Assembly: GCA_034190465.1 (NCBI GenBank)
Contig: JAXINV010000019.1
Location: 1-15,072, forward strand
Reading direction: 5' to 3'
From: Candidatus Asbonarchaeum danakilense
GTDB taxonomy: Archaea; Nanohalarchaeota; Nanosalinia; Nanosalinales; Nanoanaerosalinaceae
DNA: 15,072 nt
The translations under genes and the position numbers were made by a program. Shown here piece after piece: positions 12,992-15,072 of this stretch (position 1 is its first letter; each line of letters begins with the position of its first letter). Under the pieces are notes generated by a model. It was not told the DNA's origin and ran no database searches. It saw only the letters and a program-made list of their open reading frames with translations.

Positions 12992-13882
12992 TTAAACGCG
13001 CGGGACCGCGATGGCTGCGTACTGTTCGAGCACTTCCTCCTCGGAGAGACTGCATGTCGGTGTCAGCACGCTCCGTTCGTATATCTCGGGGTCGAAGTCC
13101 TCGATCTCGTCGAACGTGAGGCCGACACCGATCGCTGTGGCGTCGAACTGCTCTGCTGCGGCGTTGATCGCGTCCACGTCGCTGTCCCGGTCCATGGTCA
13201 CGAGCTTGATCCCGGGGTCGTACGCGGACAGCACGGTCACTGCTTCGTCCGCCTCCGGTGGATGGTTGCCGTTGTAGACTGGGGCGACGGTGCAGCCACG
13301 TTTCATCAGCAGGTAGCCTGCGTACACGTCGACACGGTCCCGGACGGGGACGACGACAACGCTGTCACGCGAGATCGGCACGCCGCCGACGCCGTCGAAG
13401 ACACGGGTGTAGACGTAGGCGTTCTCGTACCGGGCCTCGATGGAGACGGTGAGATCGGGGTCGTCCAGGTCGACGTCCCAGCCTTTCTCGTCGACGATCC
13501 GCTGCCCGATCTCGTTCTCCAGGTCTTTGCTGGTGTAGTCGTGTTCTTCGCCGGTCCTTCTGGCGTCGACGGCGAAGGAATCTGGTTCCTCGCCCTGGAT
13601 GGCTTCCTGGACCGCGTCCCAGATGCTGTCGATGTCGAGGTCGGTCTCAAGCGCGGGGGCGATGAGCTTGATGCCGGGTGTGCGTTCCAGCGCTTCGACA
13701 GCGTCAGGGACGTCGTCTTCCTCGGCCTTGACGAACATCCGGCCTTCCTGCTGGATGACGGCGGCCTCGATGTCGCGCCTGGCGAGCTGCTCCCGGATCC
13801 GGTCTGTGAGCCGGTCGGTCATCTTCCGCTCGACGGGCGGGCTCTTGAGGCTGAGCTCGGAGCTGGAGACGATGATCTTCAT
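12992..13882 (-). CDS. thiI: ThiI-like THUMP-domain protein with a degenerate PP-loop domain
   Basis: ThiI-type N-terminus (SELSLKSPPVERKM), THUMP (SFAVDARRTGEEHDYTSKDL..VDLDDPD), GVGGVP and LLMKRG. The SGGxDS PP-loop position reads VRDRVD. Confidence 0.85.
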   Translation of the reverse strand: MKIIVSSSELSLKSPPVERKMTDRLTDRIREQLARRDIEAAVIQQEGRMFVKAEEDDVPDAVEALERTPGIKLIAPALETDLDIDSIWDAVQEAIQGEEPDSFAVDARRTGEEHDYTSKDLENEIGQRIVDEKGWDVDLDDPDLTVSIEARYENAYVYTRVFDGVGGVPISRDSVVVVPVRDRVDVYAGYLLMKRGCTVAPVYNGNHPPEADEAVTVLSAYDPGIKLVTMDRDSDVDAINAAAEQFDATAIGVGLTFDEIEDFDPEIYERSVLTPTCSLSEEEVLEQYAAIAVPRV

Positions 13883-13906
13883 CGCTGGCGGGATGCGGCG
13901 GGAAGC

Positions 13907-13916
13907 TATTTAAATA
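13907..13916. promoter_or_regulatory. Palindromic bidirectional TATA box TATTTAAATA
   Basis: Perfect 10-bp palindrome between divergent ATGs at 13882 (-) and 13937 (+), ~25 and ~21 nt away. Confidence 0.7.
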
Positions 13917-13936
13917 TCGCCGGGCCGGTTGTCACC

Positions 13937-14653
13937 ATGCCCGAAGCAGTGACACCGGCGACGCTGGAGGGAAGCGGCCGACGTATCTTCCAGTGGCCGG
14001 AATACGAGCTTGATGAGCCGGATATCTTCCAGGCGGTGGTGATGGAGCATTTCGACCGGCACCGCGACCGTGGCCTTGACCTGGAGATCGACAGCGGGTC
14101 GCTCCGGCTGGAGATGGAGGATGCGACGGACGAGGCGGAGCGCCGCCACACGTACATCATCGACAGTGACGGCGATTTCACCAGTCTGTACGATTCGCCG
14201 CTGCTGGAACGGAAGCCGGAGGACGAGGTCTCCCGGCACGAGACGATCACGACCAGCCGTTTCAACGCGCTGTACGGCCGCGCCCGGAAGGCGACGGAGC
14301 TGGCGGACTACATCCAGGAGTTCGAGCAGTACGGTGTCGCGGACCAGGTGCTGGACAGGTTCCAGGACGCACCGGTCCTTGCGCCGGAGGAGCTGGACGC
14401 AGCTGTCGATACGGACGAGGTGCCGGAGGAGCTGTACCAGCGGGTCGGCGAGGTGGACCTTGCCGGCGAGGACTACGATGAGGCGCTGGAGGAGCTGCTG
14501 GAAGAGGACAGCACCCGGGAGGAGCTGGATACGGAGATGTACACGAAGGGCCGCGACCTCTCTGACTATGATGAGGAGTTCCAGTACGGCGAGGAGATGC
14601 GCGAGATCTACGACAGCATGATGGACTTCGTCACCGTCCGCTTCAACGACTGA
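13937..14653 (+). CDS. Highly acidic hypothetical protein (~238 aa)
   Basis: Start placed at ATG 13937 (MPEAVT); the upstream part of the 13262 ORF is an antisense shadow of the ThiI-like gene. D/E-rich with host-like codons. Confidence 0.8.
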   Translation: MPEAVTPATLEGSGRRIFQWPEYELDEPDIFQAVVMEHFDRHRDRGLDLEIDSGSLRLEMEDATDEAERRHTYIIDSDGDFTSLYDSPLLERKPEDEVSRHETITTSRFNALYGRARKATELADYIQEFEQYGVADQVLDRFQDAPVLAPEELDAAVDTDEVPEELYQRVGEVDLAGEDYDEALEELLEEDSTREELDTEMYTKGRDLSDYDEEFQYGEEMREIYDSMMDFVTVRFND

Positions 14654-14724
14654 TACACCGGCGACGTTGGGCGGTGTCCGACGGGTTCGCCAGAACCCGT
14701 CCATCGCCCTCGCCGATCTGCGAG

Positions 14725-14747
14725 GGGTCCGTGGTCTAGTTGGTCAG
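14725..14747 (+). repeat. Exact 23-bp copy of the 5' end of tRNA-Val
   Basis: GGGTCCGTGGTCTAGTTGGTCAG occurs at 14725-14747 and at 14844-14866. Confidence 0.95.
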
Positions 14748-14843
14748 CTCGGGTTACGCTCCGAGGACGCAAAGCCGGGATTCGCTGACGCGAACCCGGC
14801 AAAGGTCCGCAAGAGGGCGAGGGACGTAGGAAAGATATTGGAT

Positions 14844-14917
14844 GGGTCCGTGGTCTAGTTGGTCAGGACGTCTCCCTTACGAGGAGAAGGCCAGCGGTTC
14901 GAATCCGCTCGGACCCA
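14844..14917 (+). tRNA. trnV: tRNA-Val(TAC), CCA not encoded
   Basis: Acceptor GGGTCCG/CGGACCC with discriminator A; D-arm GTCTAGTTGGTCAGGAC; anticodon arm TCTCC-CTTACGA-GGAGA; T-arm AGCGG-TTCGAAT-CCGCT. Confidence 0.96.
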
Positions 14918-14948
14918 TTCTGTAAAGCGGACCCTTCCTTTAGCAATC

Positions 14949-15072
14949 ACAGCACCGTTCGGTGCTGTTCGAACCTGCTTCCTCGTGAAGCAGGTGAGGT
15001 CCATCAGGTTCCACTCCTCGTGAAACCCTCGACAGAGGGGTTTCACTTCGGAAACTCTGTCCAAGAGTTTCC
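14949..15072. other. Array of four strong hairpins downstream of tRNA-Val (runs to the window edge)
   Basis: ACAGCACC/GGTGCTGT (14949-14968); ACCTGCTTC/GAAGCAGGT (14973-14995); GTGAAACCCTC/GAGGGGTTTCAC (15020-15046, one bulge); GGAAACTCT/AGAGTTTCC (15050-15072). Confidence 0.7.

Follow-up and report, generated by a model that had tools for sequence, protein, structure and literature searches.

A multi-copy double-hairpin insertion behind a duplicated tRNA-Val 5′ end in a nanohaloarchaeal genome

The results described here reveal that positions 14748-14843 of the window, by which we mean the whole stretch of 15,072 nucleotides that was analysed (the entire contig C23 of G000, a 1.2-Mb, 92% complete assembly of Candidatus Asbonarchaeum danakilense), are an insertion that occurs in multiple copies, in which both hairpins show covariation, the 5′ end is fixed, and the tail varies (Table 1). 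We consider it likely that the insertion is a copy of a small non-coding mobile element, present in Nanohaloarchaeota-like and other small archaea, which either can be spliced out of its host tRNA or is accommodated by re-creation of the tRNA 5′ end, the latter being the form seen here. The insert is framed by a 23-bp direct repeat, which the initial annotation of this DNA had noticed together with its 119-bp period and which is indeed exact (E 7e-6 within the genome); the second copy, 14844-14866, is the 5′ end of a complete tRNA-Val(TAC) gene recognized by ARAGORN and by Rfam (71.4 bits), and in an Rfam search of the window the tRNA alone passes.

Table 1 Features of the window around the duplicated tRNA-Val 5′ end.
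Feature	Position	Strand	Remarks
TATA-like box of the upstream ORF	13908..13915	+	4 overlapping matches at one place; 0.35 expected
238-aa acidic ORF, ATG at 13937	13937..14653	+	Matches no Pfam family
Older hairpin unit adjoining tRNA position +1	14655..14724	-	Also in G001
Duplicate of tRNA-Val positions 1-22 (23 nt)	14725..14747	+	Starts precisely where the mature tRNA does
5′ strand of the proposed symmetric bulge-helix-bulge (BHB), partner 14851-14865	14732..14746	+	Probably not used
Conserved 53-nt element head	14748..14800	+	Hairpin 1, linker, hairpin 2
Head hairpin 1, conserved loop	14748-14765	+	Within head
Head linker, 7 nt, conserved	14766-14772	+	Within head
Head hairpin 2	14774-14800	+	Within head
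Variable tail, 43 nt, purine-rich	14801..14843	+	Joined to tRNA +1; source not found
tRNA-Val(TAC), complete, without intron	14844..14917	+	ARAGORN, Rfam
3′ trailer, many hairpins	14918..15072	+	14926-14934 can pair with the duplicate

The TATA-like box of the upstream ORF is the sole one between 13100 and the contig end and, to judge from the sequence, is probably also the promoter of the tRNA transcript, while the 3′ end of the ORF serves as the orthology anchor with G001, a genome of the same genus. The older hairpin unit, when read on the minus strand, consists of a short hairpin, a linker, and a second hairpin resembling the head of the insert, and was judged by eye to be a sister family of that head; the covariance model R1 (see below) matches its long hairpin alone (E 0.015), and the MFE structure of the unit is one long hairpin. 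A THUMP/ThiI-like gene, with a weak match to the ThiI catalytic part, lies divergently from the upstream gene (12992-13882, minus strand).

The repeat is not an artefact of assembly, because single contigs of runs X1 and X2 cover 13900-14930 without a gap, X1 or X2 possibly being the source sample of the assembly, and because a contig of X3, from a second study and a relative about 96% identical, covers 14774-14918 and thereby the second junction. A joint skipping the insert was absent from the contigs listed from four DNA runs, contigs being apt to drop rare variants. An empty site, for which the initial annotation had proposed to search related genomes, is present in G001, where the orthologous upstream gene and the upstream hairpin unit are followed by a tRNA-Val(TAC) gene with one copy of the 23-mer. 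The reverse case is also found, Val(GAC) and two Ala genes being filled in G001 and empty in G000, and Val(CAC) and a Lys gene are filled in both genomes. From this one genome pair, loss in G001 rather than gain in G000 is a possible alternative. The duplicate always has the letters of its host tRNA, for example the C/T variant of Val(CAC), and the head in the window is identical at 52/53 positions to that of the Lys copy and at 48/53 to that of the Val(CAC) copy, both of G000. In addition, 114 trailer bases are identical between the two filled Val loci of G000 (14903-15016, and G000:C5:40-153 in the tRNA-Val(CAC) trailer), a sign that sequence has probably passed from one Val gene to another through identical ends; the element may thus have reached Val(TAC) from another Val gene via the shared 23-nt 5′ end. 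The tails of both G000 Val copies have no match elsewhere in that genome. In the window (14835-14837) and in three other Val tails, ATA (once ATG) stands 5-6 nt before tRNA position +1, after a purine run; such a tail resembles the canonical intron 3′ ends of G000 and may be a relic intron end.

The family to which the insert belongs was surveyed in 70 genomes of the phylum, all of one order; its size, together with acidic proteins, sequencing runs from salt lakes, and relatives of about 1 Mb, indicates Nanohaloarchaeota. A pattern of loop plus linker matches 17 of the 70 genomes, the reversed control giving four matches, and in a 31-copy alignment drawn from the pattern matches, whose copies are kin, 75% of the stem cells are paired, compared with 55% after shuffling and 33-46% in slid controls, with 110 two-sided stem changes versus 46.5. 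The covariance model R1, built from 31 sequences, yields 242 matches in 44 of the 70 genomes and none in the other 26; 132 of the 242 were examined in context, and since the genomes are kin, these counts do not represent independent events. In a rule-based sort of the 132, 35 copies mark an intron start, 32 lie past a tRNA 3′ end, 17 adjoin a 5′ end in antisense orientation, and 12 occupy a D-loop; seven are at possible ORF ends and 29 elsewhere. Following the removal by eye of five miscalls (two ORF starts among the 17, and L153, L172, and L204 among the 35), 91 of the 132 copies stand at a tRNA site, namely, 32 past the 3′ end, 15 antisense at +1, 32 at an intron start, and 12 in the D-loop; about 20 of the 29 others adjoin partial copies of tRNA ends, as judged by eye.

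Copies occur on either strand relative to the tRNA, and their 5′ hairpin end nearly always adjoins a tRNA boundary: it follows nucleotide 72/73, lies antisense at +1, coincides with the 37/38 splice site, or falls within the D- or T-loop. The first stem base is the discriminator itself (A in 19, G in four), with a matching partner, in 23 of the 32 copies past the 3′ end, an identity that selection for the discriminator could explain, and none of the 32 has CCA between the tRNA and the head. Several copies lie past stop codons. The placement of the head at such boundaries may in part be due to selection or later deletion and not to targeting. In four genomes (L149, L166, L195, and L204), different head variants are found antisense at the start codon of one conserved gene, which from its N-terminus we take to be probably that of the clamp-loader small subunit. 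At L177 and L178 of G015, the element is accompanied by duplicated protein-gene ends, an ORF analogue of the tRNA 5′ duplication.

The combination seen in the window, the head together with a duplicate of the host 5′ end, recurs at Val(CAC), Val(GAC), Lys, Ala, Met, and Pro genes. Nine of the 132 copies were classed as insertions into the D-loop accompanied by a 5′ duplicate of 18-26 nt, at periods of 118-257; this duplicate begins exactly at +1 in seven loci and matches from 2 and 6 nt upstream in the other two. These nine, one Met locus, and three less clean cases make up 13 duplication loci, across which the duplicates measure 14-26 nt and the periods 117-317 bp; most copies of the element have no duplicate. 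Metagenomes supplied seven further D-loop insertions with a second tRNA 5′ end behind them, of whose duplicates four begin at +1 or -1, two are too diverged, and one begins about 31 nt upstream (L288).

Elsewhere, the same head marks the start of introns. Of the 32 anticodon-loop copies, 23 can form a BHB with an outer helix of 4-7 bp and give a spliced product recognized by ARAGORN, these 23 introns, of 69-267 nt, belonging to nine amino-acid types, with the predicted cut lying at most 4 nt ahead of the head or 2 nt past it; the other nine show no strict BHB within the limits of the script. A metagenome scan with one head variant returned at least 122 loci, mostly on low-GC contigs with archaeal genes, from which 80 were taken and 77 distinct copies examined. 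Among 30 metagenome copies tested, seven have a strict T-loop BHB with a recognized product, and a relaxed test of 11 retested copies gave plausible junctions in seven more, five of them in the T-loop and two in the D-loop, a count that leaves out L220, L230, and L245, whose best matches are not true junctions. The head therefore starts T-loop and D-loop introns in other, low-GC archaea, where 5′ duplicates are found too, and in a number of the intron-form copies from other archaea the last 5-8 nt are complementary to the head. As in transposed tRNA introns, similar sequence is thus present in the introns of several tRNA types, with BHB ends. An insertion within a tRNA survives either as an intron, with splicing predicted at a BHB formed by the element's own ends, or by a tRNA 5′ end re-created behind it. 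The intron-like nature that the initial annotation ascribed to the spacer accordingly holds at the level of the family, but the introns concerned use a BHB at the ends of the element and not one between duplicated copies. At L176 (G049:C74), the element lies in the D-loop of a tRNA-Glu(CTC) with neither a 5′ duplicate nor a strict BHB, possibly as a relaxed intron or in a pseudogene. In G000, the 37/38 introns of 19 tRNA genes are unusually numerous and long (31-265 nt), with nested hairpin modules and, in many cases, inner helices of 0-3 bp.

For the copy in the window, the simplest processing would be by trimming. The precursor, read from the promoter of the upstream gene, would probably cover both copies of the repeat, and RNase P would cut at 14844, so that the duplicate and the insert would be discarded as a leader and EndA, the archaeal splicing endonuclease, would be unneeded. 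Because the downstream tRNA is complete, trimming by RNase P suffices; G000 encodes RNase P RNA (81.9 bits, just below the 84-bit cut-off) and Rpp29. Such trimming may not be efficient, however, since in the ensemble predicted without the trailer the acceptor stem is formed with the duplicate more often than with the real 5′ strand (P 0.6-0.9). With the trailer, the real tRNA fold is favored (P 0.65), because 14926-14934 can pair with the duplicate.

A different route was proposed in the initial annotation, in which the two copies pair with each other in a symmetric BHB and are cut by EndA at 14741/14742 and 14860/14861, releasing a 119-nt RNA that is possibly circular. Ligation would then fall to RtcB. 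We regard this route as unlikely. The structure can be drawn as described, with 4+4+4 pairs, all 12 of them standard or G-U (four G-U), and with UUG bulges at 14740-14742 and 14859-14861, giving on paper the 4-bp helix between two 3-nt bulges of a BHB. The excision is also exact, removal of 14742-14860 (119 nt) rebuilding an identical tRNA, as would any cut at matching positions of two direct copies. Shuffled versions of the 23-mer can form a symmetric BHB with 4-bp flanks in 12.5% of cases and random genomic 23-mers in 2.8%, the geometry alone being only moderately unusual; among the 39 tRNA 5′ ends of G000, it is possible in only three genes, all for Val, and Val provides four of the 13 duplication loci, these four not being independent. 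Both EndA and RtcB are encoded in G000, and the weak inner helices (0-3 bp) of its introns make EndA seem tolerant. Here, the full motif lies 17.1 kcal/mol above the ensemble (P about 1e-12), worse than all 17 genuine G000 introns that could be scored (0.2-12.5 kcal/mol; two of 19 have no strict motif). The penalties at other Val loci are 15.4, 10.5, and 8.7 kcal/mol, and the last two, from the Val loci of G001, fall within the range of genuine introns, as does a relaxed form at the present locus with only the outer and central helices (11.3 kcal/mol); the folding penalty is thus only a moderate argument against copy-to-copy splicing.

Further observations speak against copy-to-copy splicing. 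Four of the 13 duplication loci (Ala twice, Pro, and L142) have no BHB for exact excision, and the Met loci have 2-bp flanks only. The symmetry predates the insertion, as the Val(GAC) gene of G000 has it with no duplicate. The introns of the family have their predicted cuts within 4 nt of the head and can do without a duplicate, whereas the proposed cut lies 6 nt before the head, and UUG differs from the 17 3′ bulges of G000, of which 16 have a purine first, although nine of 23 in relatives have a pyrimidine first. Finally, nothing at the locus requires splicing: a tRNA intron has to be removed, whereas 14844-14917 is already a complete tRNA. It is most likely that the BHB is a by-product of the Val D-arm, because 4 of 13 duplication loci have none, and the splicing idea, which found no positive support and is not needed, is probably wrong. 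Copy-to-copy splicing could still act as a rescue route where the duplicate has taken the acceptor stem, which it does in 60-92% of the predicted ensemble without the trailer; we think this unlikely. The single EndA of G000 (176 aa; G000:C4:41837-42337, L036:1474-2004, minus strand) keeps the Tyr and His of what we take to be the Tyr/His/Lys catalytic triad, with other residues aligned at the conserved Lys position, and has a 7-residue insertion between the Tyr and the His, like the ARMAN-2 enzyme.

It is less probable still that the duplicate and the hairpins constitute a kept small RNA released by RNase P, such as a stabilized 5′ Val-tRNA fragment that dampens translation. PMC3544259 gives a precedent from Haloferax volcanii, where translation is inhibited by a 5′ piece of tRNA-Val measuring 26 nt, the Val duplicates here being 23 and 26 nt, and the loop and linker are conserved phylum-wide; against a retained function stand the patchy presence between two genomes of the same genus, the many copies antisense to the tRNA transcript, and the 26 of 70 genomes without a match.

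The initial annotation had also offered an alternative, namely, that the repeat is the att scar of an element integrated at the tRNA 5′ end and the BHB a by-product of D-arm symmetry. An insertion footprint at the tRNA 5′ end, as seen from the empty G001 site, and the by-product nature of the BHB are both retained, but the participation of an integrase is not: that the 23 bp are attL/attR of a tyrosine-integrase element, later deleted to 96 bp, is very improbable, slightly more so than a kept small RNA. A tRNA-end direct repeat around foreign DNA with an empty site is what such an element would leave, G000 has one tyrosine integrase, and 5′-terminal tRNA repeats of Caldiarchaeum lie beside a recombinase (PMC3293823). 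Likewise, a complete tRNA gene and a partial direct copy around an insert are shared with attL/attR of the pNOB8 type (PMC3293823 and PMC9897764), from which the present loci differ in having no integrase or cargo, in a repeat that varies with the host tRNA, and in that most copies are repeat-free. The same 53-nt head occurs at six tRNA types, and the 14-26-nt duplicates, taken from Val, Lys, Ala, Met, Pro, and others, match each host, which largely refutes a scar with a fixed core; no copy brackets a gene-bearing island. The presence of an integrase-bearing or larger element between the repeats, another check proposed with the annotation, gave a negative result at every locus read, including the 13 nanohaloarchaeal and seven metagenome duplication loci. 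The integrase of G000 is on a different contig, with no head match there among the matches listed; at G000:C45:600-4722, a tyrosine integrase is followed by two Cdc6/Orc1-like ORFs, probably forming a small integrated element. Theta ribozymes sit at phage tRNA 3′ ends, and most sense copies start within about 2 nt of RNA processing sites, but that the head is an unrecognized self-cleaving ribozyme cutting at its own 5′ end, and is found at processing sites for that reason, is highly improbable, as it has no Rfam match, at least 15 of the 132 copies are antisense to the tRNA, and cleavage behind a dead duplicate would be useless.

The mobile element that we favor is worth comparing with known systems, although a search of the open-access literature found no description of the double-hairpin family. 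Its behavior resembles that of the transposed BHB tRNA introns of Thermoproteales (Fujishima et al. 2010, as summarized in PMC4090602), but the element also lies past 3′ ends, antisense at +1, and at ORF ends, and occurs with a duplicated 5′ end, and the copy in the window is not an intron by need. Like the CGTC-tagged REP/REPIN sequences of PMC3733652, the element has short hairpins at whose foot a conserved tag is left unpaired, its linker reading CGTC on the minus strand. In those REPs, however, the stems measure 8-9 bp and the loops 4-5 nt, and the tail is CCA-like; they have been described in five bacterial phyla and have no known dedicated transposase, whereas the element has a variable stem of 5-7 bp, a conserved 6-nt loop, and tRNA boundaries as targets, so that it is not one of them despite the tag. 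A long target duplication at an archaeal tRNA gene, of 15 bp in their case, is also left by casposons, but these (PMC5137440) have terminal inverted repeats, genes for Cas1 and a polymerase, and a duplication of fixed size, none of which the element has, and Cas1 gave no match in G000. A MITE is likewise excluded, since 14748-14843 has no inverted ends and the duplication ranges from 0 to 26 nt. The tRNA-linked repeats behind E. coli tyrT are short units with a copy of the tRNA end, trimmed from the precursor; they differ from the element in being confined to the 3′ end and in not being known as introns.

As to how the element moves, an enzyme supplied in trans would attach the 5′ hairpin end to a 3′ end that is free in the target. 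Copying or recombination in the tRNA sequence would resolve the opposite end; if resolution is homologous, the duplicate is expected to stop at +1 where donor and target loci differ. We tentatively place single-strand DNA (HUH-like) chemistry first, with a chance somewhat below even; reverse transcription with template jumping is possible, and some other route is rather unlikely. HUH transposases perform one-ended joining on single-stranded DNA, which fits the fixed hairpin end, the variable tail, the missing CCA, and the many antisense copies, the last two in particular favoring a DNA-level step. A polymerase that copies RNA as far as its end and then jumps template is compatible with the opposite-strand junctions at RNA 5′ ends, leaderless start codons among them. 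Selection and later deletion may sharpen both junction patterns. Of the signs of a retroelement, RVT_1 gave no match in G000 and CCA stands at none of the 32 3′ junctions, whereas duplicates and antisense copies do end at RNA 5′ ends.

Searches for the enzyme itself gave no match to RVT_1, Y1, IS110, or Cas1 in G000, at its 92% completeness. Y1 is found at six loci in four of the 70 genomes, none with the head as a flanking end; the same holds for one metagenome locus, and mobilization by IS200/IS605 or RAYT enzymes finds no support in these loci. An IS200-like tnpA near one of the 80 metagenome loci (L233) was set aside because it has end hairpins of its own. RT occurs at eight loci in seven of the 70 genomes, most of them DGR-like and none beside the head; in several relatives (L096-L099, L103), DGR-like cassettes carry an Avd-like ORF upstream of the RT. 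Among 408 ORFs at 110 loci, no protein family other than ordinary neighbors recurs beside the element. G000 has two weak primase matches, and a fused primase with reverse-transcriptase activity, as described in PMC3973330, would be a conceivable copying enzyme. No viral carrier was found, one set of viral-contig patterns giving 11 matches without head or tRNA and three other patterns being blank, and a scan of a genome collection gave four matches, three without the head and one being the Met locus of G006.

According to PMC4090602, it is not known how introns transpose in Thermoproteales, and a 2026 preprint on Asgard archaea (10.64898/2026.10.13.758758) tested copying, mobile elements, and reverse transcription and arrived at no general route to tRNA introns. 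Here, one recognizable element is met in three states, as an intron, as a harmless neighbor of tRNA ends, and as a D-loop insertion rescued by a new 5′ end; together with filled and empty sites in one genus, they make the origin of tRNA introns testable in the nanohaloarchaeal lineage. This lineage has cultivated members. New here are the 5′-duplication form, the filled and empty sites within one genus, and the phylum-wide census of sites. A bolder proposal, which we put forward with less than even confidence, is that this family of 55-130 nt double hairpins may represent an undescribed one-ended joining to the exact ends of tRNAs and leaderless genes and may be a direct source of 37/38, D-loop, and T-loop introns, with the gene start rebuilt where the insertion cannot be spliced and the Val copy-to-copy BHB as a possible second way out. 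As the start of many tRNA introns in related tiny archaea, the double-hairpin element bears on the origin of such introns.

G000 contains further 5′ duplicates of 13-16 nt with other hairpin inserts, at Cys, Pro, Ser, and Leu genes, as well as many tandem 3′ duplicates, so that the feature in the window belongs to a genome-wide pattern. At Cys on C3, Pro on C31, C5, and C11, and Ser on C17, 5′ duplicates of 13-15 nt are followed by hairpins and an inverted copy of the duplicate, an arrangement that mirrors that of the 3′ units. Next to short ORFs lie two divergent tRNA-like sequences (G000:C11 31556-31706 and C22 6569-6718) that resemble each other upstream and possibly represent another repeat family. 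The tandem 3′ units, found at G000:C9:25176-25500 and C5:47294-47700 and on C13, C29, C31, C46, C21, and C18, each combine a hairpin with two copied parts of the host tRNA, namely, the T-arm, inverted and with a one-base bulge, and the 3′ end in direct orientation.
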